A stretch of 41,266 bases of DNA from a virus, in the IMG/VR virus record IMGVR_UViG_3300029746_000018; one strand, written 5' to 3'. Position numbers and translations under genes: made by a program. Shown here in pieces: positions 3,120 to 28,028 of the stretch (position 1 is the stretch's first letter; every line of letters begins with the position of its first letter). The notes under the pieces were generated by a model that was given only the letters and a program-made list of their open reading frames with translations, was not told where the DNA came from and searched no databases.

Positions 3120-3947
3120 CTATACCCACTTGCCTACGATCAGTTCTTTCGGTCTTGCGATGATTCCATCATACAAAATGAATCCCTTGACCGCGTCGAT
3201 AAACCCGTTTTCCGGTCTGTAAGGCTCGATGTGCGTCATCGGATTTACAAACGCAATCGCTCTGTTGGTCTTCAGCTGTACCATGTAGTTTCCGGAAGAA
3301 TCTTTCGCGCAGTTGTTGGATTCCTTGATCGTGATACCATTGTACTTGCCCACAACGCCGTTTTTCATCATAACAGAGTTGTCGGTATCAAGGTGCACAT
3401 ACGCCTGTTTCAAAAGCATAACGTGTTTCGGAGGAAGCGTCAGCGTGATGTTGGACGTTCTCTTTACATCGTTTTCAAGTAATTTAACAAGCATGTTGTC
3501 GATTGTTTCAAGGATGTTGTCCTTTGTGATGGTGGTTGCCGCAGAATTGAAAACAACCGCCTGTTTGTTTAATGACATATTCGCAACAAACCTATCCATC
3601 TCGTCCGCCAAGGCTTCGGAAGTTTCCTTTGCAAGGGCTTCCATTAAGCCGCCGACCGCCTGTCTTTTATCAATATCGCCTACTCCGTAATCAAAGTATG
3701 CTGCATGATTGATGTTAAGAGTGATAGACTGATCTGCGACCTCTTCTGGTCCGGTCAAAACAATCTTCTTACCTATCTGCGTCTTGATTGTTGGTTTACC
3801 TACGCCGAGAATTCTTACCGAATCGCCTTTCTGCTTAACTTCTCCTTCATACTGACGATTGGTGTCAGCCACGAATACATGATCTCTCTCGATGTCTCTG
3901 TTGATTGCTTCCGCCCATACTGTTGGAATAAAATTCTGATATGACAT
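3120..3947 (-). CDS. major capsid protein (small HK97-fold type)
   Basis: 275 aa, directly after the scaffold gene. The N-terminal FIPTVWAEAI segment and the size fit small capsid proteins. Supported by gene order. Confidence 0.6.
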   Translation of the reverse strand: MSYQNFIPTVWAEAINRDIERDHVFVADTNRQYEGEVKQKGDSVRILGVGKPTIKTQIGKKIVLTGPEEVADQSITLNINHAAYFDYGVGDIDKRQAVGGLMEALAKETSEALADEMDRFVANMSLNKQAVVFNSAATTITKDNILETIDNMLVKLLENDVKRTSNITLTLPPKHVMLLKQAYVHLDTDNSVMMKNGVVGKYNGITIKESNNCAKDSSGNYMVQLKTNRAIAFVNPMTHIEPYRPENGFIDAVKGFILYDGIIARPKELIVGKWV

Positions 3948-4690: not shown

Positions 4691-6361
4691 TTAAAAAACA
4701 GCCTGTTGGGCTGCTTCTTGACTGAATAATTGTTGTTGTACGAGTGCGATCGCGTCCTCTTGCGGAATTCCTTGAGACATTAAGTCAAGCACTTGTCTTG
4801 CGAAGTTTTCTCCGCTTTGTGCTTGCTGTTTCTGCATCATCGCTTCTCGCTTTGCAAGCATTGACCTTAATTGCCCTTTAGGGACCGGGCCATTGTCCGG
4901 CGCGAGGTCTGCATATTCCTCTAAGGATAACTGCTGACGGTCAAACATGTTGTCAAGCCACTGCTGATTAGAAAGCTTCGTCCACTGGTTATCCTGTGAA
5001 ACGTCAATCCTAACCGTAGGCTTCAGATCTTGCAACTGCTGTTGGTCGATTAAAGTCTGCACTTCTTCGCCCATATCGTTTGTAGAAGTTACTTGGATTC
5101 CCTCCGGATGGTAGGCAACCCACATATCAAACCATAAGAGCGCCACATCTTCAACAAACTGCTTATACCTAGCGACATTTTCGTTTAATGTTACCTGTGC
5201 GCTGTCTCTGACTGCGATAATCGCTTGCCCTGATGCCTGTTCCGGATTGACATTACCCATAGCGTAATCACTGGCACCGGCAAGATCTTTTGTGATTTGC
5301 AATAAATCGTTTTGCAGACTATTCGCATCGCTTGATATGTTTGTTGCGTTGAGGTAGGAAACTTGTTGTGAAACAGACTGTGCACCGCCGCCGCTTACCT
5401 CAATCGGCTTTCCGACTGTGTCTAGGTCCTCCGGATTCTGAACGGTTGAAGAATCATAAGCAATTCTAGGGAACGCACAAAGCTTGACTGTGATTGCGCG
5501 TCTTGCAGCTGTCTTATTTAACTCTAGTTGGTTTGGAATCAGTTGAGCGACTTCCGAAACGCCTCTAGCGTCATAAGGAATCGGTCTCCAGATCATTGAA
5601 CAAATCGGGTACGAATGCAGTCCGGTAACGTCTCCTTGGATTGCATGCATCGGTTCGTAAATGCACTGTGCAGTAGAACGTGCGACTTTTACAATCCCGT
5701 TCTCTTTTGTCATGTAAAGAAGCGATGTAACCTTATTGGAAACCTCATAGTTATTCAATATGACACCATCGTTTGCATTTGAATTGTCGTCTCCTACAAT
5801 CAGTTCGATGTCTTTTTTCGAAATACCGTTATCCTTTGCAATTTTTCTGACCGCCTCAACCTCTAATCTCTCTCGAATGATGATAAACGGCTGTTCTTGA
5901 AGATCTGTTATATTCTCATCTCCAAGCAAGATCGATGTGTTCGGCAGAATCTTCGGCGGCATATCGGTTCTGTCACTTCCCCAATACGCATAGGCGTCTC
6001 CTTGGATTGCTGCTGCATTGATTAAATCCCACGTTTTGGAATCCATTTTGGATTTTTCCCAGTTCTTCGCGAAGTTTTGGTTCAGAAGTTCGTATATCGG
6101 CTGTAAATCGCCTCTGTTCTCAATATCAGAGTATTTAGCTGTCATGGAGTTTTGCGAAACGACAGAAACCTTGTACTGAACAATCGGCAGGATAAAATTG
6201 AAAATCGGAAGCTCTTCGCCTCCGGTGTTACATCCGACCCACTGATTGCCAATATAGAAGTTCCAGTTTCGCTCTGTTTTCTTGACAAGCCCTTTTTTAT
6301 CAAGATAATCTTTGCATTTTTGGTACTTTTGCCATATTTTGGTGTAAACTTTATCTTGCAT
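4691..6361 (-). CDS. portal protein
   Basis: 556 aa, downstream of terL. An NFYIGNQW motif near the N-terminus matches SPP1-Gp6-type portals. Supported by gene order. Confidence 0.65.
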   Translation of the reverse strand: MQDKVYTKIWQKYQKCKDYLDKKGLVKKTERNWNFYIGNQWVGCNTGGEELPIFNFILPIVQYKVSVVSQNSMTAKYSDIENRGDLQPIYELLNQNFAKNWEKSKMDSKTWDLINAAAIQGDAYAYWGSDRTDMPPKILPNTSILLGDENITDLQEQPFIIIRERLEVEAVRKIAKDNGISKKDIELIVGDDNSNANDGVILNNYEVSNKVTSLLYMTKENGIVKVARSTAQCIYEPMHAIQGDVTGLHSYPICSMIWRPIPYDARGVSEVAQLIPNQLELNKTAARRAITVKLCAFPRIAYDSSTVQNPEDLDTVGKPIEVSGGGAQSVSQQVSYLNATNISSDANSLQNDLLQITKDLAGASDYAMGNVNPEQASGQAIIAVRDSAQVTLNENVARYKQFVEDVALLWFDMWVAYHPEGIQVTSTNDMGEEVQTLIDQQQLQDLKPTVRIDVSQDNQWTKLSNQQWLDNMFDRQQLSLEEYADLAPDNGPVPKGQLRSMLAKREAMMQKQQAQSGENFARQVLDLMSQGIPQEDAIALVQQQLFSQEAAQQAVF

Positions 6362-6613
6362 TTATAACTCCTTTTGCCCTTTGGAGGAACCGTCATAGTT
6401 TTCGATGTTCTCAAGTAATGTGTTGAGTCGACTCCGTTTTTCTGCGGCTTTTTTGTTTTCCTTGGCTCTTTCAATCTTCTGCATCGGCGTTTCCAGCTTG
6501 ATTTCCGGCTTGTTTGTCTCTCTTGCACCGATGTTATAGCCCTTTATAAAGCAAAAGACGCTCAAAATCGGCGTCAGTACGGCTAAAACCATAATTGTAA
6601 TGTCAGATAACAT
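6362..6613 (-). CDS. small membrane protein, unknown function
   Basis: 83 aa with one N-terminal TM helix and a Lys/Glu-rich tail. Wedged between terL and the portal gene. Confidence 0.4.
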   Translation of the reverse strand: MLSDITIMVLAVLTPILSVFCFIKGYNIGARETNKPEIKLETPMQKIERAKENKKAAEKRSRLNTLLENIENYDGSSKGQKEL

Positions 6614-8060
6614 GAATTTTGTCTCCTTTGTCGAATCTTTTCCCTTTTTTACGCTTTAGACCAGGGAAATTTCGCTCTAAAAACGATTCTTCTTTAATTT
6701 TTATCACTTTTGCGTCAGAATAAATGAATTTATTTAGAATCTGCGACATGCAGTCTACTTGGTCGTCGTGCTTTCCGTTCGGAAACGCCGCGCATTCCTC
6801 GACAAAGTCTCCGGTAAACGGTTTATTCTTCGGCAAAAAGCAGTTTCCGCTCTCAATCGTACCGATTACGGCATTGACACGAGAAACTTTTCCGCCGTCC
6901 GGATTGACTGCGATTATCCCGCCCATATGCGTCCTCAAGTACTTCACAATCGCAGAACCATTTGCCTTGTCCTCGATGTAGGTTGTCTTGCACATAGGAT
7001 ACATGCCCCTCAACCTTGTAATCTCTCGTATCGTGGACGGCATATCAAGGTGTTTTTTCACTGCGTCAATCAAGTAAAGGTTAGCATTTGTCTTTCCCCA
7101 CACTTGAATTGCCACAAAGTCGTTGTCGTCTCCGTCTTTGAACGCAGCATCAACGCTCATCGCCATTTTTTCAATATGGGGTAAAGTCTCGTAATACTGC
7201 CACCACTCACGTTTGATTATGTTGCCCTCAAGCCCTGTTGGATGCCCTTGGAATAATGCGTTCCATGCTCTTGAACCACTCAAGCTAGTGTAGGACTTCT
7301 TGAAGTCGGCAAGCCAAACATTGTCCTTGCCGATCTCCGGACACAAAGCATCTCCAACTTTTCTGCCTAAAATATCATCCGGCTCTGCCTCAAGCGGGAT
7401 ATTGACAACCTTGACATTCTGTTCTGTCTCAATCAGTCTTCCGGCTAAATCGTCCTCATGCCAGCGCGTCATAATCACAATGATTTTGGCACCGGCATAA
7501 AGTCTTGTCTTATACGACGAAAGCCATTCATCAAATACTCGATTACGATAACTTTCGGAATCCGCCTCTTGCTGTGTCTTTACTGGGTCATCGATAATCA
7601 TGAGGTCGCATCGACGACCAGTTACACCGGACAAAAGTCCTCTGCTTACCATGCCGCCCCTATGACCTTCAAGTTCAAACTCTGTCGCATTGGCAGGTGA
7701 ACCGATTTTCACTCCAAAAACATCACCGCAGAATTCTTTTATCTTCTGCAAATTGCGTCTGCCGAATTTCTGCGCGAAATCTTCAGAGTAGGAAATCTCG
7801 ATCACTGATTTTTCCGGGTTTCTACCAAGATACCAACTTGGAAGCGTCTCCGTCACTGTAACAGACTTACCATGCTGCGGGGGTGTAGACAAAATTAAGA
7901 TGTCATACGCATGCCCGGTGTTCTCTTCCAAAAAATCTTGCACCGTATCGCACAAAAACCGGTGGAATTTACTCACTTTATAGCCGTTATTGGTGTGTTT
8001 TACATACGCGCAGTAATCCGTCCTTAAAACGTCTCTATAGAGCCTCAAAACATCATTCAT
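6603..8060 (-). CDS. terL: terminase large subunit
   Basis: 485 aa. ATPase motifs present (PPQHGKS Walker-A-like, LMIIDDP Walker B), followed by a nuclease-type C-terminal half. Overlaps the upstream gene by 8 nt. Confidence 0.85.
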   Translation of the reverse strand: MNDVLRLYRDVLRTDYCAYVKHTNNGYKVSKFHRFLCDTVQDFLEENTGHAYDILILSTPPQHGKSVTVTETLPSWYLGRNPEKSVIEISYSEDFAQKFGRRNLQKIKEFCGDVFGVKIGSPANATEFELEGHRGGMVSRGLLSGVTGRRCDLMIIDDPVKTQQEADSESYRNRVFDEWLSSYKTRLYAGAKIIVIMTRWHEDDLAGRLIETEQNVKVVNIPLEAEPDDILGRKVGDALCPEIGKDNVWLADFKKSYTSLSGSRAWNALFQGHPTGLEGNIIKREWWQYYETLPHIEKMAMSVDAAFKDGDDNDFVAIQVWGKTNANLYLIDAVKKHLDMPSTIREITRLRGMYPMCKTTYIEDKANGSAIVKYLRTHMGGIIAVNPDGGKVSRVNAVIGTIESGNCFLPKNKPFTGDFVEECAAFPNGKHDDQVDCMSQILNKFIYSDAKVIKIKEESFLERNFPGLKRKKGKRFDKGDKIHVI

Positions 8061-8763
8061 TTTTTGCCTCTAATAGTCTTGGTCTTGAATATCCGAGTTC
8101 CTCAAGGTTCTTCTTCGCTTCATCAACACTGGATGTGTCCTCAACCTTTACCACTCTGTCTTCTCGCTTATCCGCCCAATCGCATAAATTCTTTAAGGTG
8201 AATATCGCACTGGATGTGTTATAGGCGCCTACTAGAGCCCCGTCACTTAACAGATCTCCCAGCATCGATTTATATTCGCTCTCCTGCGATGGGCTCATAT
8301 TCGCTAGGTGGTCACGCATGGACCTCCTAGAAATGCCTAGCCACATAGCTAGGTTTGTAACGTTCGGCACAATCGGCATTACGCCTGTTTCTCCGTCCGG
8401 TCTCTTAAACTCTTTCACGAAATTGTGCTTTCGGATATATGCACAAAATCCCTCAAACGCAGTCAATATCTCGTCGCAGCTTTCAAATATCTTTTTTTGA
8501 AGCGGTTCTAAATTATCCCTCATAGAGTAAATATAGCCCCACATCGCTTTCGCTTCTTTCGTGAGGTCTTTATCCTCTAGGTTTAATGGGTTCGGTCTAG
8601 CTTGATCATACTGCTTATAAAGCTGGTCTGCTCTACGAATCGCTTTCTTCGCATACGCTGCCTTGTTCTTCTCTTTGATCTGCGGTCTTACATGCGGAAC
8701 AAACGGTTGAACAACCAGTTCATCATTCCTTGGTCTGCCCCTCTTTCTCTTTTCTTCTTCCAT
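8053..8763 (-). CDS. terS: terminase small subunit (putative)
   Basis: 236 aa with a basic N-terminus (KRKRGRPRND). Immediately upstream of terL and overlapping it. AGAGG RBS. Confidence 0.5.
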   Translation of the reverse strand: MEEEKRKRGRPRNDELVVQPFVPHVRPQIKEKNKAAYAKKAIRRADQLYKQYDQARPNPLNLEDKDLTKEAKAMWGYIYSMRDNLEPLQKKIFESCDEILTAFEGFCAYIRKHNFVKEFKRPDGETGVMPIVPNVTNLAMWLGISRRSMRDHLANMSPSQESEYKSMLGDLLSDGALVGAYNTSSAIFTLKNLCDWADKREDRVVKVEDTSSVDEAKKNLEELGYSRPRLLEAKNE

Positions 8764-8926
8764 TTCGTACCTCTTTTCAGTCTATTTACAGTTATTTTTT
8801 TACTTTTTCAGTGGTTTTGCTCATTTTCTCGGTATCCCGCCCGTGAGCAAAGTTGCCTTTTTACAATTTCTGTATTAAAAACGCTAACATTTTTTTCTAA
8901 TTTTGGAATCAGGGCTTCTTTCGCCT

Positions 8927-9026
8927 AGTGGGGTGTTTACGATTCGCTTGCGAGGTGTAAGTACTCTGTATAGGGGGCATCCTCGCGCGAGTGGGGTCAT
9001 TTACGATCCACCCCATCGGGCATCCT
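8927..9026. repeat. direct repeats upstream of terS (AGTGGGGT-n-TTTACGAT x2, GGGCATCCT x2)
   Basis: Copies at 8927..8945 and 8990..9009, and at 8975..8983 and 9018..9026. The 10-bp palindrome CTCGCGCGAG at 8982..8991 lies between them. Confidence 0.5.
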
Positions 9027-9320
9027 GCCGCACCCTCTGCCCTACTATATGTAGTGGTCGAGGGACAAAACAAGCGGCGGGAAAGAATAAGGGTATTTCT
9101 TCCACCGCCTACGATTATTGAAATTCCAACGTTCGCAAGGATAATGTAAAACTTTGTAACTATTCCGATAACTATGATTTAGGGAATAGTTGAGAAGAAA
9201 CGAAGATGTGCCAGTGATGCATGGAAAGCGTGTGCCAGTCGGCTTTTTGGGCGGGAAGCATCTATACGAGCCCAACCCATCCTCGTATTCAACCGAGATT
9301 GCCCTACATTTATACGCACG

Positions 9321-9347
9321 AAAAAAGACAGCCTGTATAGAGCTGTC
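9321..9347 (-). terminator. intrinsic terminator downstream of tRNA-Tyr
   Basis: On the minus strand: GACAGC-TCTATACAG-GCTGTC followed by TTTTTT. Confidence 0.65.
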
Positions 9348-9444
9348 TGTGTAAATATAGTTTTGGTTTACTGTTAAGGGGTGTTCCTGTATGGTTTCCC
9401 CCGACTGCGGAGCCTGCCTGTCCTGTGTTCCTATATATGCCCTG

Positions 9445-9530
9445 TGGTCGGGAATGCAGGATTCGAACCTGCTAAGCTATAAGCGTCAGATTTACAGTCT
9501 GATGTGCATCTCCCGCTGCACTGATTCCCG
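9445..9530 (-). tRNA. tRNA-Tyr (anticodon GTA), class II with long variable arm, CCA encoded
   Basis: Cloverleaf folded by hand. Acceptor stem CGGGAAT/ATTCCCG, D stem GTGC/GCAC, anticodon stem TCAGA/TCTGA with loop CTGTAAA. 13-nt variable arm. T arm GCAGG-TTCGAAT-CCTGC. Discriminator A followed by CCA. Confidence 0.85.
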
Positions 9531-9756
9531 ATATGTGCGCGCGGTTGTGTTCATTTATCCGCGCGATAGTGTCGTTCCCCGTCTGCGTGGTAACGCGTCC
9601 TGCGCTCCGGGGTTGTTTGTTGCAGCCGTCATTCCCCCGATCGGTGACGCTGCGCTGTTCTATGTTATCCGCCCGCCTAGGGGTCGGCAATAACCGTTGC
9701 CCCCATTGCGGGGGCGTTGAAAGGAGGTCAAAAAACAATGAAAAACCTGTTTACCC
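9531..9756 (-). ncRNA. G+C-rich, highly structured RNA segment upstream of and probably co-transcribed with tRNA-Tyr (candidate ncRNA or leader)
   Basis: Several hand-paired stems, for example 9538..9565 (CGCGCGG/CCGCGCG) and 9699..9715 (GCCCCC/GGGGGC). No credible ORF. Bracketed by an extended -10 and the 9321..9347 terminator. Confidence 0.3.
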
Positions 9757-9762
9757 ACTACT

Positions 9763-9771
9763 ATTGTACCA
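9763..9771 (-). promoter_or_regulatory. extended -10 element TGgTACAAT (candidate promoter of the tRNA/ncRNA unit)
   Basis: Reverse complement of 9763..9771. The -35 is poor (ACGAAA). Confidence 0.25.
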
Positions 9772-9865
9772 CATTTCTATAGATTTTTCGTCCGCGGAAC
9801 GTCCGCATTTTTCAAGGGTTTGCGGGTTTTGCCGAAAAAAGTTTGAAAAAAATTTAAAAAATGGG

Positions 9866-9894
9866 TTGACATACACCGATTGCAGTGCTATGAT
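9866..9894 (+). promoter_or_regulatory. near-consensus sigma-70/SigA-type promoter
   Basis: TTGACA (9866..9871), a 17-nt spacer, then TGc-TATGAT (9889..9894). An A-rich UP-like tract lies upstream. Confidence 0.7.
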
Positions 9895-9947
9895 GTGGAT
9901 ACAACGAAAGAGCGGAACGCCACAAGGGCGATTGAAAGGAGAAAAAA

Positions 9948-9980
9948 ATGAAGAATTTTAAAGAGGGGGATTTTAGATAA
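9948..9980 (+). CDS. 10-codon upstream ORF (MKNFKEGDFR) coupled to the next gene
   Basis: AAAGGAG RBS 7 nt upstream. Its TAA overlaps the ATG of the next gene as TAATG. Confidence 0.3.
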   Translation: MKNFKEGDFR

Positions 9981-10558
9981 TGGGCAGAGCATCGCATGGT
10001 CAATCCGGAACAAGATTGTATTCTATATGGTCGAAAATGAGATCTAGATGCAACCGAAAAAAAGATCCTGCTTTTAGGTTCTACGGAGCGAAAGGAATCA
10101 AAGTCTGTGAAGAATGGGAGAATGACTTCCTTTCGTTCAAAGAATGGGCTGAACTCAATGGCTACACCGATAAACTAACAATAAACAGAATCGACAGCAA
10201 GAAAGGGTATTCGCCAGATAATTGCAGATGGCTAACACCAAGTGAAAACTCTGCGAGAGTGAAGTTTTCTAGGGATTCCGAAGCGTTTAGAAACGCCATT
10301 GAAAAAGGCTTAAACAACTGGTTCACTGAATACAGCGATCAAGCAGGCGTCAGCAAAAGAGTAGAACTAATAAACAAAATCATTTCAGAACTTCCGAATC
10401 TCGGAACCGGACAACTTGAATTAGTTTACACTCATATCGAATGGATAAAAGCACAAGCGGAAAGCACTAAAAGAAAGCGAGAAGCAGACAAAACAATCAA
10501 AACATATCAGGAGTATAAAAATGGCACAGAAATATACGGAAGCAAAGAAAATTGCTAA
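9980..10558 (+). CDS. AP2-like DNA-binding domain protein (putative regulator)
   Basis: The pattern TRLYSIWSKMRSRC..FYGAKGIKVCEEW..INRIDSKKGYSPDNCRWLT is the one I associate with phage AP2/HNH-associated DNA-binding domains. GGGGGA RBS. Confidence 0.4.
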   Translation: MGRASHGQSGTRLYSIWSKMRSRCNRKKDPAFRFYGAKGIKVCEEWENDFLSFKEWAELNGYTDKLTINRIDSKKGYSPDNCRWLTPSENSARVKFSRDSEAFRNAIEKGLNNWFTEYSDQAGVSKRVELINKIISELPNLGTGQLELVYTHIEWIKAQAESTKRKREADKTIKTYQEYKNGTEIYGSKENC

Positions 10559-10706
10559 CCGCAAATGGGATGCCGAAAACCTAACAGCAATAACAATCCG
10601 ACTGCCAAAAAAAATGGCGGTGGATTTCAAAACAAAATGTAAAAACGATGGCATATCACAAGCGGGCATTATAAAAGAGTATATCGAAGATTTTTTAGGG
10701 AGATAA
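10521..10706 (+). CDS. ribbon-helix-helix (Arc/CopG-like) protein
   Basis: 61 aa. The segment ITIRLPKKMAVDFKTKCKNDGISQAGIIKEYIEDFL fits a beta-strand plus two helices. AGGAG RBS. Confidence 0.45.
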   Translation: MAQKYTEAKKIANRKWDAENLTAITIRLPKKMAVDFKTKCKNDGISQAGIIKEYIEDFLGR

Positions 10707-10768
10707 CAATCCCTAAAAAATATATACACCGCTTGTAGTGTATGCCAACCAAGAAAGGAAGTACAACA

Positions 10769-11263
10769 ATGAGATTTTTTCAGAACATCAACACCATCGA
10801 AGAGTTAAAAAAACAGTATTTCGCATTAGCGAAGAAATACCACAGCGACATTACCGGCGGCAGTGATGACATCATGAAGCAGATTAACGCAGAATATGCG
10901 GACCTGCACAAGAAATATAAGGACATCCACACAAGCCACAAGCCGGAGCAGGAAACCTACACCGCGGCAGAATCTACAAGCGAATGCCCGGAGGACTTCA
11001 TCAACATCGTTTCCGCCCTGTTAAAAATGGGCTTGAACGTCGAGTTATGCGGTCGTTGGTTATGGATCAGCGGAGACACAAAGCCGCGTAAAGACGAACT
11101 GAAAGCCATCGGCTGCAAGTGGTCAGCTAAAAAATGTATGTGGTCATGGCACTATCCGGAGGACGGCAAGAGATACCACAAGAGAACGTCAAGCATGGAA
11201 GAGATCAGAGAAACATACGGAAGCGTCAGCTTCCAGTTTCAGCAGCAGATGCAATTAGCTTAA
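10769..11263 (+). CDS. J-domain-like protein with HSD in place of HPD
   Basis: IEELKKQYFALAKKYHSD..IMKQINAEYADL has J-domain helix II/III spacing. The start was moved to ATG 10769, which sits behind an AAAGGAAG RBS. Confidence 0.45.
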   Translation: MRFFQNINTIEELKKQYFALAKKYHSDITGGSDDIMKQINAEYADLHKKYKDIHTSHKPEQETYTAAESTSECPEDFINIVSALLKMGLNVELCGRWLWISGDTKPRKDELKAIGCKWSAKKCMWSWHYPEDGKRYHKRTSSMEEIRETYGSVSFQFQQQMQLA

Positions 11264-15858: not shown

Positions 15859-16147
15859 TGTTTCTAAACCTCTGCCCGCAGAGCGGGCAAAACACAAAAT
15901 CTTCTGCCACCATCTCCGACCGGAAAGCCTGCCCGCATCTTGCACATTCAAAATAGTGTCCGTCCTCGTCTATGTTTACAGGCTCCATCGGCACTTGGTA
16001 CTGCATCAACTTATCAGCGTACTTGAACATGTACTGAATCTCGTACTTTGTAGCCGTATCCCCGCCTCGCTTGAGGCTTATCTTTCTGATTTCATCAAAC
16101 CATTTCATTGCCTTTTGCGGTGTCAAATCATTCTTTTTCGGTGTCAT
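15848..16147 (-). CDS. small zinc-ribbon protein
   Basis: 99 aa. Contains CARCGQ..(16 aa)..CPLCGQ. Confidence 0.5.
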   Translation of the reverse strand: MTPKKNDLTPQKAMKWFDEIRKISLKRGGDTATKYEIQYMFKYADKLMQYQVPMEPVNIDEDGHYFECARCGQAFRSEMVAEDFVFCPLCGQRFRNNEV

Positions 16148-17012
16148 TGTTTACCTCAATACCTGTAATTTCTTTGAATATCTTTGCATCAAAATTCGGA
16201 ATCTCTTGTATAATTTTTTTATCCTTTTCTGACGTTTTTCCCCACCAATTCGCCCATGCTTCTTTCATAGTGTATTCTTTCAGATAACCACCAATCATTT
16301 CTTTTTCTGGGTCAGCTTTCTTTTCTTCTTCGGTGTATGGAATCCATTCTGTCAGCATGAACGGAGCACTGCATAATGCTTCATAGTATCTGCTTCTGTA
16401 GAAATCTCGCAGGCTCATTCCGGACGGTCGATTGAATATTCTAATATTCATATCCGGCTCGGTACAAAACACACCGTTAGAACCGTCGCATGTGTTCCCG
16501 TATCCTGTGTTCCCGTATCCTGTGTTCCAGTCGCCTGTGTTCCTGTCGCCTGTGTTCCTGTATCCTGTGTTCCCGTATCCTGTGTTCCCGTATCCTGTGT
16601 TCCTGTTGCCTGTGTTCCTGTCGCCTGTGTTCCAGTCGCCTGTGTTCCTGTATCCTGTGTTCCTGTCGCCTGTGTTCCTGTTGCCTGTGTTGAATAGTCC
16701 AGTATTTCCGTTTACCATGCCTTTCATAGCAGCTAATTCATTGCCCGTAATCTCACGGACAATCTTAATATGGTCACTTCCGCATTTCTCTCCGTCTGTC
16801 ACTTCTTCTCCTAAAACATCGATTTCAAAAAATCTGTTCAGTTCCTTGCAAGAATAGTGTTCGTGTACTTGTTGTAGACTGTCGCAATAGTGGAAAACCG
16901 TATCGCTGCACAATTCCAACGGCTTTCCGTCATGTTCTATTTTGTACTCTTTGCCGATTTCAAACTGAAAGCCTCGGCATTTCATATCTTTATCCATTCC
17001 TTTAATTTTCAT
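16128..17012 (-). CDS. NTGxx pentad-repeat (beta-solenoid-like) protein
   Basis: 294 aa with 15 consecutive xxNTG pentads (residues about 103-177), flanked by Cys-containing N- and C-terminal domains. Confidence 0.6.
   Translation of the reverse strand: MKIKGMDKDMKCRGFQFEIGKEYKIEHDGKPLELCSDTVFHYCDSLQQVHEHYSCKELNRFFEIDVLGEEVTDGEKCGSDHIKIVREITGNELAAMKGMVNGNTGLFNTGNRNTGDRNTGYRNTGDWNTGDRNTGNRNTGYGNTGYGNTGYRNTGDRNTGDWNTGYGNTGYGNTCDGSNGVFCTEPDMNIRIFNRPSGMSLRDFYRSRYYEALCSAPFMLTEWIPYTEEEKKADPEKEMIGGYLKEYTMKEAWANWWGKTSEKDKKIIQEIPNFDAKIFKEITGIEVNNDTEKE
16491..16691. repeat. 15-bp-period tandem repeat (coding, encodes the NTGxx pentads)
   Basis: Units of tgtgttcc(c/t)g(t/c)..cc repeat about 13 times, in frame within the 294-aa ORF. 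Confidence 0.9.
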
Positions 17013-22646: not shown

Positions 22647-22720
22647 CGTATATATCCATCCTTTCCTTGTTGCTGTCTAAGCAATCTTGGCAAATTAGAT
22701 TCTTGCCAAACCAGTATCCG
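22643..22720 (-). pseudogene. degenerate duplicate of the 3' end of the zinc-ribbon gene 23027..23227
   Basis: 78 nt align with 23031..23108 with 7 mismatches (offset 388). The frame reads ..GYWFGKNLICQDCLDSNKERMDIYDES. It has no start codon, and stops lie upstream. Confidence 0.7.
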
Positions 22721-22836
22721 AATTCACTTTGGGGCTTTCAGTTCCTTTTGAATTTTTATTAGTTTATTCATGTTCGTTCTCCTCGACAAAGTTTTTAATT
22801 ATTATTTGAAGTAACTTTTCTGCGTTCCTTACGAAG

Positions 22837-26507: not shown

Positions 26508-28028
26508 ATGGTACTGATGTATTTACGGAAGTCTCGTTCAGATAACCCATACGAGACTGTGGAAGAAGTGCTATCAAGGCATGAGACAATGCTTCAAGAA
26601 TACGCAGAAAAAGCATATGGTTATCGAATTCCGGAAAGTCAAATTTATCGTGAGGTCGTATCCGGAGAAAAGATTCACACACGACCGGAAATGCAGATAC
26701 TATTGAAACGAATTGAATCGTCTGACGTAAAATCTGTGTTGGTCGTTGACCCGCAGCGTCTTTCTAGGGGCGATTTAATGGACTGCGGTCGTTTGATGCA
26801 GGCGTTCAAATACAGCCGCACAACGATCGTTACACCAATGAAAATATTTGACTTATGGGATAAGTTTGACGAAAAGATGTTTCAAGACGAACTGCTACGC
26901 GGGCGTGATTACCTTGAATACGCGAAAGAAGTCATGGCGCGCGGGCGAAAACTGTCTGCATCAGAGGGTTGGTACCTTGGAAGCGTTCCGCCGTTTGGAT
27001 ATGACATTGATTACGTTATGGACGGCAAGCGTCGCAGAAAAACGCTGAAGCCTAACCAAATAGAAGCACCAATAGTTGATAAAATCTTCTCTTGGTTCGT
27101 GGACTTAAAAATGTCCTTGTATGGAATTGCAGCTAAATTAAACAACATGGGAATAAAACCAAGAAAAGCAGAACATTTCTCAACAGATGCAGTCAGACAC
27201 ATTCTTTCGAATCCTATTTATATAGGTAAAATTTCAGTTGGACGACGTCCGATGGTTGAAAAACTGGTTGACGGGAAAGTGGTTGTATCACGTCATAGGA
27301 CTGCCCCACAAAGAATTTTTGATGGAAAACAGCCTGCGATCACCCAAGAAGAAAGATTTTATGCTGCGCAAGAACGCCTCGGAAATCTTCCTAAAACAAA
27401 GATGGGCAAAGGGGTGACAAATCCTTTGGTAGGAATTCTAAAATGCAGCTGCGGTCGTGCTATGATATATCACCCAGGACGCGGTGAGGCAAGATTGATG
27501 TGCGCAAATCGAAGATACTGCGGATCACGTTCTGTTCCGTTTGAGGAAATATACAATGCTATCATAGATGCACTAAAAGAAAATGCAAGAGACTTTCAGA
27601 TTAAAATTGATTCCGGGATTGACATCGCACTACAGAGATACAACGAAGAAGTTTCGGAAATAAAAGGAAATCTTCAAGAACTCGATGTGCAGCAAGAAAG
27701 ATTGTTTTCGTTCCTAGAATCCGGAACGTACGACGAAATGACATTCCGGAAACGTAATTCTATTTTGATGGAAAAACAAGAGAAACTAAAAAAACAGTAT
27801 GAAGAGATATTGGCTAACGAGCCGGAAACAATCGACTACAAAGAGAAAATCGGAACACTGTATCAAGCAATAGACGCAATGAAATCAGAGGAACTAACAG
27901 CAAAACAGAAGAACGATTTTCTAAAAAATATAATAGGCAGTATCGTCTATACTCAATTAGAAATATTAGACAATGGAACAAGGTGGGGGAAGAACCAGTA
28001 CAGACTGGATATTTTTTTGAAAAATTGA
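26508..28028 (+). CDS. large serine recombinase (integrase)
   Basis: 506 aa. Resolvase-type N-terminus (YLRKSRSD..), then a recombinase domain, a Cys-rich zinc-ribbon (CSCGRAM..CANRRYCGS) and a C-terminal coiled coil. Confidence 0.85.
   Translation: MVLMYLRKSRSDNPYETVEEVLSRHETMLQEYAEKAYGYRIPESQIYREVVSGEKIHTRPEMQILLKRIESSDVKSVLVVDPQRLSRGDLMDCGRLMQAFKYSRTTIVTPMKIFDLWDKFDEKMFQDELLRGRDYLEYAKEVMARGRKLSASEGWYLGSVPPFGYDIDYVMDGKRRRKTLKPNQIEAPIVDKIFSWFVDLKMSLYGIAAKLNNMGIKPRKAEHFSTDAVRHILSNPIYIGKISVGRRPMVEKLVDGKVVVSRHRTAPQRIFDGKQPAITQEERFYAAQERLGNLPKTKMGKGVTNPLVGILKCSCGRAMIYHPGRGEARLMCANRRYCGSRSVPFEEIYNAIIDALKENARDFQIKIDSGIDIALQRYNEEVSEIKGNLQELDVQQERLFSFLESGTYDEMTFRKRNSILMEKQEKLKKQYEEILANEPETIDYKEKIGTLYQAIDAMKSEELTAKQKNDFLKNIIGSIVYTQLEILDNGTRWGKNQYRLDIFLKN

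Follow-up and report, generated by a model that had tools for sequence, protein, structure and literature searches.

A gene-free region upstream of terS in an uncultivated phage, read as a late-operon control region with an optional tRNA-Tyr gene

The virus record IMGVR_UViG_3300029746_000018 comprises 41,266 nucleotides (nt) of DNA (the window, i.e., the whole stretch that was analyzed) and contains, at positions 8764–9979, a gene-free island directly upstream of the small-terminase gene terS. The island is ordinary in kind: a control region of a late operon that holds an accessory tRNA gene and a few conserved motifs that are not accounted for. In full, and at a somewhat better than even probability, it is a stretch without open reading frames (ORFs) that serves the packaging (late) operon as leader and control region and doubles as an insertion slot for accessory tRNA genes. 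Almost all features listed by a sequence-only reading were confirmed at their positions. That reading had proposed that the island may encode a large ornate RNA of the GOLLD or ROOL type or another of that kind; since no covariance model (CM) matches, covariation is minimal, and the core is dispensable, such a conserved architecture is excluded. The phage itself is best explained as an uncultivated human-gut siphovirus of the Firmicutes type.

The position of the island follows from its neighbors. The genes terS, terL, and portal lie on one side and a plus-strand cargo operon on the other (Table 1); hence, 8764–9979 is the divergent region that heads the packaging (late) operon. Relatives were gathered by three routes: look-ups in IMG/VR based on TerS; a search with the TerS protein followed by retrieval of the contigs; and a metagenome scan with the DNA pattern of block A, one of three conserved blocks of the island described below. 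Approximately 25 distinct island versions—individual relatives are referred to by L numbers—span TerS identities from 100% to 50%. In every version, down to 50% TerS identity, a gene-free stretch of 846–2029 nt separates terS from the divergent operon, and on 11 of the relatives' contigs this place received no gene call, with the same range of gap sizes. The claim that the island holds no credible ORF stands: its ORFs of 30–142 amino acids overlap one another and the tRNA. The longest island ORFs vary in strand and length between relatives, and a coding island was rejected, with ORF conservation across relatives being nil and a 196-amino-acid ORF in the T-poor filler of L024 being junk rich in R, P, and E. 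The island is also the largest gap of the window, as had been claimed; the accompanying statement that all other gaps measure 0–170 nt was nearly right, with one internal gap of 190 nt (22647–22836), which is the sole other internal gap above 150 nt in a greedy set of ORFs of at least 55 amino acids.

The island carries predicted signals for a short transcription unit on the minus strand. The extended −10 promoter TGGTACAAT is the only sigma-A-like promoter on this strand of the island, and none lies between the terminator and terS. It is kept in 14 of 14 close relatives and remains recognizable in L030 (TGGTAAAAT) and L028 (TGCTATAAT). The inverted repeat GCGGAACGTCCGC upstream of it is kept in 12 of the 14 with changes in the loop, and L007 has the palindrome GTTGAAATTTCAA instead; an inverted repeat or, in L007, the block-B palindrome upstream of a −10 is what would be expected of a regulated promoter. 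Read on the plus strand, the same region forms a weak terminator-like hairpin (9794–9812) after the mini-ORF treated below. The intrinsic terminator is likewise kept in all 14 close relatives, where C-G to U.G and U.G to C-G changes pair on the minus strand only. No terS-sense terminator was found in the islands of the distant relatives L024, L028, and L030, which lack the cassette; therefore, the terminator travels with the inserted unit, whereas the promoter is older. Promoter and terminator, both foreseen by the sequence-only reading, thus bracket a unit of approximately 440 nt, and the proposed order of promoter, leader, tRNA-Tyr, and terminator is borne out. Among relatives the unit measures 254–477 nt; it is absent at TerS identities of 82% or less and is found only in this phage lineage. 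On the plus strand, the predicted sigma-70-type promoter of the cargo operon has 11 of 12 consensus matches plus a TG extension, in a block that every relative with a TerS identity of 68% or more retains. A further plus-strand promoter that had been pointed out, TTGAAA-16-GATAAT at 9118–9145, is present; its −10 is lost in L007, L047, L060, and L044, and one half of a conserved palindrome makes up its −35. As a separate observation, the terminator hairpin can be enclosed by a pairing between CUAUAUUUA on its upstream side and UAAAUGUAG on its downstream side (9295–9365, minus strand); a similar helix forms in L030, which is without the terminator, and not in L007.

The tRNA-Tyr is real but optional in the island. 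The Rfam model RF00005 matches 9448–9530 on the minus strand with 49.7 bits against a gathering threshold of 29, and the alignment features CUGUAAA in the anticodon loop and a variable arm of 13–14 nt. The gene is approximately 80% identical to annotated phage tRNA-Tyr genes. ARAGORN calls no tRNA in the window, but it recognizes the tRNA-Tyr of L001, a one-base variant, and that of L047; a threshold effect probably accounts for the miss. Nine of 22 distinct islands carry the tRNA-Tyr. In L047, a diverged copy sits at a different position, directly after the leader hairpin P1, and differs from that of the window by C-G to U-A in the T stem, GCU/AGC to ACA/UGU in the variable-arm stem, and U-A to G.U in the anticodon stem. 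This copy keeps the cloverleaf via compensatory changes, which argues that the tRNA is real and under selection. In L002 and L061, only the 13-nt ATCGGTGCAGCGG is left at the orthologous place as a deletion remnant, and L033 (50% TerS identity) carries tRNA-Ile(TAT) and tRNA-Gln(TTG) in a different slot, 113 nt upstream of terS. The gain, movement, and loss of the tRNA, the tRNAs of L033, and the insertion of an HNH gene in L045 therefore mark the late-operon leader as a recurrent insertion slot.

Further details attach to these tRNA loci. Every tRNA-Tyr copy seen has C1-G72 and C8; bacterial tRNA-Tyr usually has G1-C72 and U8. The island of L033 is a gene-free stretch of 2 kb; at 3522–3584 and 3653–3888 it holds its tRNA genes, just upstream of terS, and a truncated tRNA-like element of acceptor and T arm only, which gives a weak match to transfer-messenger RNA (E = 0.015). 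The insertion in L045 (4890–5369, minus strand) is a classic HNH endonuclease gene of 159 amino acids between block A and terS, in the orientation of terS; an HNH gene beside the terminase is a layout typical of cos phages. A "tRNA graveyard," in which the filler would consist of decayed tRNA fragments, was rejected as a general explanation: only the 13-nt remnant of L002 and L061 stands out, with a score of 25.7 bits that is level with the top score among 100 shuffles; the CGGGGGAA modules have no significant tRNA likeness, and no further tRNA-like CM matches occur at E ≤ 10. Nor did statistics favor the view that the short motifs recurring in the filler are halves of decayed tRNAs. Accessory tRNA genes of phages that have a strong promoter of their own offer the closest comparison for the locus, in that a single tRNA-Tyr(GUA) follows a good promoter and precedes a terminator, and in that the locus is variable, present or absent among close relatives (PMC11555353; PMC10264068). 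T5 phage has a single, strongly expressed tRNA-Tyr that serves in defense evasion and counters retron-Eco7 PtuAB (PMC11555353). The tRNA of the island differs by its C1-G72 and C8 and by lying in a late-operon leader, not in a tRNA-rich region.

The GC-rich part of the island proved to be its least conserved, most dispensable, and most rearranged segment. The composition and the local stems that had been noticed from the sequence were all recovered: a G+C fraction of 0.55–0.59 over 9400–9700 versus 0.36–0.47 in the flanks; the stems at 9538–9565, 9699–9715, 9622–9653, 9160–9189, and 8992–9015; the palindrome CTCGCGCGAG at 8982–8991; and all three pairs of direct repeats. The excess of folding energy is modest, with z = −2.15 (minus strand) and −0.78 (plus strand) for the 230-nt leader, −3.4 for the 440-nt unit including the tRNA, and −2.46 for the left 557 nt. 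The segment 9550–9700 aligns in only five to nine of 14 close relatives and in none of six distant ones, and segment swaps are visible. The core 9531–9700 has 0% coverage in six of 12 relatives whose terS–terL DNA aligns fully at 76–92% identity and is 58% covered in the more distant L007 (77% terminase identity); its distribution is therefore mosaic. Within the filler, CGGGG(G)AA recurs, at 9639 and 9581. By definitions made post hoc, after the data had been viewed, ATAYAGR occurs five times on the minus strand of the filler and not on its plus strand, and CGGGG+A[AC] occurs three times in the island versus once elsewhere in the window on both strands. The end points of rearrangements often coincide with these oriented motifs, which may, therefore, simply be recombination hot spots. 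In L024 (3030–3610), which belongs to a clade at 69% TerS identity, a filler of approximately 600 nt is T-poor on the terS-sense strand and not alignable to the window; the filler of this clade repeats CATATAWRG and GGGGGAGAAAG, similar to the filler motifs of the window. A template or internal repeat of the type of diversity-generating retroelements was rejected: no second copy of island sequence exists in the window, and the sole internal sharing consists of island 11–12-mers that also occur in a pentapeptide-repeat gene (16128–17012). There, the repeat DNA AGGAACACAGG has 11–12-mers in common with ATAGGAACACAGG, a motif of the island, which is probably fortuitous; the gene, on the minus strand, encodes a DUF7666 domain followed by approximately 14 pentapeptide repeats in tandem (NTG[DY][RGW]).

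Upstream of the filler, the leader holds the hairpins P1 and P2 and a conserved element antisense to it. In relatives, P1 takes the form CCCCG-GNRA-CGGGG with loops GCAA, GAGA, or GAAA. The antisense element is a perfect Shine-Dalgarno (SD) sequence followed by an ATG-AAA mini-ORF that overlaps the −10; it is the complement of an invariant CAU-N5-9-CCUCCUUUC on the minus strand and resembles the hairpin and ribosome-binding site in the 5′ untranslated region of the plus-strand operon (repeat D5). Every relative retains SD, ATG, and AAA, but the peptide has anywhere between 4 and 39 amino acids and no conserved sequence; for these two reasons the mini-ORF (9738–9782) was rejected as a conserved peptide.

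The only island parts common to distant relatives are three short blocks of DNA, A, B, and C. The inverted repeat of block B is unique in the window, with 0.01 expected by chance, and in 20 relatives its arms are invariant, its spacer is always 16 bp, and covariation is absent. The block-B palindrome has a second copy beside the promoter block in L007, L024, and L030. The direct repeats of block A flank CTCGCGCGAG and the invariant 22-mer CCCCCTATACAGAGTACTTACA (8956–8977); block A is almost unchanged at the base level in relatives with at least 68% TerS identity and can still be recognized at 50%. In blocks A and B of 20 relatives, the unvarying inverted repeat was the only consensus structure that RNAalifold yielded. 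Arms that never vary and a constant spacer, with covariation absent, are the mark of DNA sites bound by proteins rather than of a folded RNA. All three blocks are unique in the genome, and no second copies of the block A and B motifs, such as operators elsewhere, were found. The fallback that the sequence-only reading had offered—late-regulatory or pac-type sites—is thus the part of it that these short invariant motifs favor.

Table 1. Features of the island and its neighborhood. Promoters, terminator, and operator-like repeat are predictions; a dot marks features not assigned to a strand.
Feature	Position	Strand	Remarks
portal	4691–6361		runs leftwards from the island
terL	6603–8060		after terS, leftwards from the island
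terS (small terminase)	8053–8763	−	first gene of the packaging operon
Block A direct repeats	8991–9007 and 8928–8943	−	ATCGTAAA-N-CCCCAC
Block B palindrome	9117–9130	.	(G/A)TTGRAATTTCAAC; GTTGRAATTTCAA
Block B inverted repeat	9158–9191	.	AACTATTCC-N16-GGAATAGTT; 10-bp inverted repeat
Intrinsic terminator	9321–9348	−	8-bp stem and T6/U6 run; predicted
Trailer	9349–9444	−	CAUAUAUAGGAAC (9427–9439), CGGGGGAA, hairpin H3 (9378–9403), A-rich tract
tRNA-Tyr, anticodon GUA	9445–9530	−	class II, long variable arm, CCA encoded, C1-G72, C8
GC-rich variable filler	9531–9663	−	local hairpins 9622–9653, 9577–9612, 9538–9565
Hairpin P2	9664–9694	−	leader; GUUAU..CCGACC / GGGCGG..AUAAC; bulged, from RNAalifold
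Hairpin P1	9699–9715	−	leader; GCCCCC-GCAAU-GGGGGC
SD and mini-ORF	9719–9782	+	perfect SD GAAAGGAGG (9719–9727); ATG-AAA mini-ORF 9738–9782, 14 amino acids, MKNLFTHYYCTTFL
Extended −10 promoter	9763–9771	−	TGGTACAAT; faces terS
Inverted repeat	9794–9806	.	GCGGAACGTCCGC; upstream of the minus-strand −10; operator-like
Block C	~9800–9950		plus-strand promoter TTGACA-17-TGnTATGAT and A/T tracts
Sigma-70-type promoter	9866–9894	+	TTGACA-17-TG-TATGAT; strong; predicted; cargo operon
Cargo operon	9980–11263	+	HNH/AP2-like (192 amino acids), Arc-like ribbon-helix-helix (RHH; 61 amino acids; 10521–10706), DnaJ-like (173 amino acids)

At the RNA level, little beyond the tRNA is conserved. The comparison with the Rfam models of large non-coding RNAs (ncRNAs), by which the earlier proposal was to be judged, matched only tRNA: at gathering thresholds, the window and 24 relatives' loci gave nothing else, leaving GOLLD (RF01998) and ROOL (RF03087) unmatched; at E ≤ 10 over 8600–10100, no non-tRNA family matched; and at E ≤ 5 in six relatives, neither GOLLD nor ROOL did. 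The covariation analysis of the relatives' alignments turned out no better for it. With RNAalifold, the whole unit (seq­uences of seven islands) has 69 pairs, of which one is compensatory, and a covariation term of +1.6 kcal/mol, that is, a penalty. The 5′ leader (12 sequences) folds into P1 and the bulged P2 with one compensatory pair, a G-C to C-G change in P2, which also has U.G changes that pair on the minus strand only. In the 3′ module, a GGGG/CCCC hairpin and the terminator emerge, and all changes there are one-sided. Apart from the cloverleaf and the terminator, the consensus structure recovered comprises only a few local hairpins.

As the late-operon control region favored here, the island would work as follows. 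Two predicted promoters stand back to back at its right end, the plus-strand one directed toward the variable cargo operon and the one at 9771–9763 facing terS. In this clade, the first ~440 nt transcribed would be non-coding: two small 5′ hairpins and the filler come first, then the tRNA-Tyr(GUA), and a trailer hairpin and the terminator close the unit. Filler and tRNA come and go by recombination among otherwise near-identical phages. The unit would be transcribed as a pre-tRNA from which host RNase P and 3′ trimming would produce the tRNA-Tyr, and this tRNA may supplement or replace host tRNA-Tyr for late gene expression or may evade a tRNA-targeting defense. The GC-rich flanks would be a fast-evolving leader and trailer with local hairpins and not one folded RNA. 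Expression of terS and the late genes would come from read-through of the terminator or from an activator-dependent start in blocks A/B, and these blocks are candidate sites for the conserved RHH regulator, for TerS (pac-like), or for both.

Several points weigh against this account. Promoter, terminator, and processing are predicted from the sequence. The leader folds better than its shuffles on the minus strand only, and the GNRA-type loops of P1 together with the compensatory pair and the minus-strand-only wobbles of P2 amount to some RNA-level signal. The unit persists in six close relatives without the tRNA and, therefore, may do more than make it. The oriented motifs ATAYAGR and CGGGG+A[AC], which are also found in the filler of the L024 clade, are not accounted for by "filler," and neither is the conserved CCUCCUUUC/SD–ATG element. 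Finally, Pfam and PHROG scans of the neighboring genes gave no late activator, antiterminator, or sigma factor.

A possible, though rather improbable, variant is modeled on the late leader of lambda phage: 9771–9763 would be the late promoter, the ~440-nt unit a terminated leader similar to 6S RNA that also carries a tRNA, and transcription would be antiterminated into terS by a phage protein or by a cis-acting RNA such as P1/P2. With its single sigma-A-like promoter facing terS, a good intrinsic terminator ~440 nt downstream, and two conserved hairpins just past the start, the island resembles PR′-6S RNA-tR′ of lambda and the corresponding region of Stx phages, which also have a late-facing promoter, a short terminated non-coding transcript, and an embedded tRNA; in Stx phages, tRNA genes lie just downstream of PR′. 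However, neither a Q homologue, a qut-like site, nor another antiterminator was recognized, with 29 ORFs scanned for such a protein, and covariation in P1/P2 is minimal. In addition, a further 550 nt of conserved DNA motifs separate the first late gene from the terminator. Distant relatives have no terminator in their leader, and antitermination therefore cannot have been how the island originally worked.

On a similarly tentative footing, the unit 9321–9771 on the minus strand may be a lineage-specific modular ncRNA gene or, in combination with the promoter at 9118–9145, an antisense switch on the late genes. In such an RNA, a hypervariable linker capable of holding a tRNA may join two conserved domains, one at the 5′ end (the exposed CCUCCUUUC or CCUCC, P1, and P2) and one at the 3′ end (H3, the A-rich tract, and the terminator). 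The persistence of the unit in 14 of 14 close relatives, including the six tRNA-less ones, its minus-strand-specific folding excess, the GNRA loops and wobble changes, and the recurring oriented motifs speak for it. The linker of GOLLD can contain tRNAs (PMC12286853), and a layout of conserved ends and a variable middle is therefore not absurd in itself; the unit may be a small-scale analogue of it. Against this stand the lack of an Rfam match, the single covarying pair among 69, and the restriction to one phage lineage, with the unit absent at or below 82% TerS identity; the conserved ends are simple hairpins. The region also resembles immI of P22 phage (arc/mnt/ant with the sar antisense RNA), in that an Arc-like RHH gene lies in a divergent-promoter block beside late genes and convergent or antisense transcription—here from 9118–9145 on the plus strand versus 9771–9763 on the minus strand—is possible. 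The phage differs by having no ant homologue, and its antisense promoter is not conserved beyond the closest relatives. If the ncRNA or switch explanation were true, AUAYAGR and CGGGGGAA would not be debris but would function as RNA elements or as binding sites for proteins.

Less probable still is that the island is chiefly a pac or cos region for the initiation of packaging, with the repeats as TerS sites and the GC-rich part as spacer. The direct repeats flank an invariant core ~180–245 nt upstream of terS, are unique in the genome, and are conserved together with the invariant N terminus of TerS; the enrichment of short oriented motifs also fits. Repeated short sites around a unique core right upstream of terS recall pacL-pacC-pacR of SPP1 and the R-sites of lambda cosB, a likeness of repeat architecture, with no sequence similarity. 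Opposed to this, the contig ends of the relatives are not concentrated at any one site, TerS matches P22 gp3 only weakly—in P22, the pac site lies within the terS gene—and promoter, tRNA, and terminator would be left unaccounted for.

That the island belongs to the GOLLD or ROOL family itself has a probability close to nil: it shares with these RNAs a phage-borne, non-coding context adjoining or around tRNAs and, with GOLLD, a variable linker (PMC12286853), which does not discriminate, whereas it lacks any model match at the three thresholds given, is half their size or less (254–477 nt versus ~580 to >800 nt), has a dispensable core, and is without the conserved multi-helix, multi-domain core of GOLLD (large, often >800 nt, with a universally conserved and covarying 3′ region) or the pseudoknotted fold of ROOL (~580 nt).

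The wider setting is that of a phage genome of ~41 kb with the majority of its genes on the minus strand. To the right of the cargo operon, minus-strand early and replication genes resume (SSB, RusA, a DnaC-like loader, and a methylase), and a serine recombinase is encoded at 26508–28028. The closest cultured TerL proteins are ~47% identical and come from the Bacillus phages Pascal and Page and from siphoviruses of Staphylococcus epidermidis; the relatives of the island come from human-gut and other metagenome assemblies. A blastn search of the island against 50,697 phage records gave no match, and scans of genome contigs by TerS profile and by the block-A DNA pattern gave no true relative. 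A match in a Roseburia metagenome-assembled genome (L037) was rejected, as it is without a TerS match and probably due to chance. The 16-mer matches to CCCCTATACAGAGTAC in L013 and L017, which lie outside the lineage, were rejected as chance because they are inside coding sequence and in a dissimilar context. The DNA of the cargo operon (9980–11263) is common to only one of 14 close relatives. In the relatives checked, the ~60-amino-acid RHH protein and the DnaJ-like protein recur (both in L001; RHH also in L007 and L030), and the HNH-like gene of this operon is an extra insertion. The N terminus of TerS carries an AT-hook-like MEEEKRKRGRPRN (KRGRPRN) that is invariant among relatives, and one TerS homologue (P0024) has a Pfam AT_hook annotation.

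A GC-rich and hairpin-rich stretch beside a phage tRNA is, as this case illustrates, insufficient to call a GOLLD- or ROOL-like RNA. Blocks A and B are ready candidates for the pac site or the late operator of an uncultivated phage clade. The gain, movement, and loss of tRNA-Tyr among near-identical phages fit the recent view of single phage tRNAs as anti-defense cargo. If the island is indeed the control region of the late operon, it would be a well-resolved case of temperate gut phages using the late-operon leader as a landing pad for accessory tRNAs and cargo.

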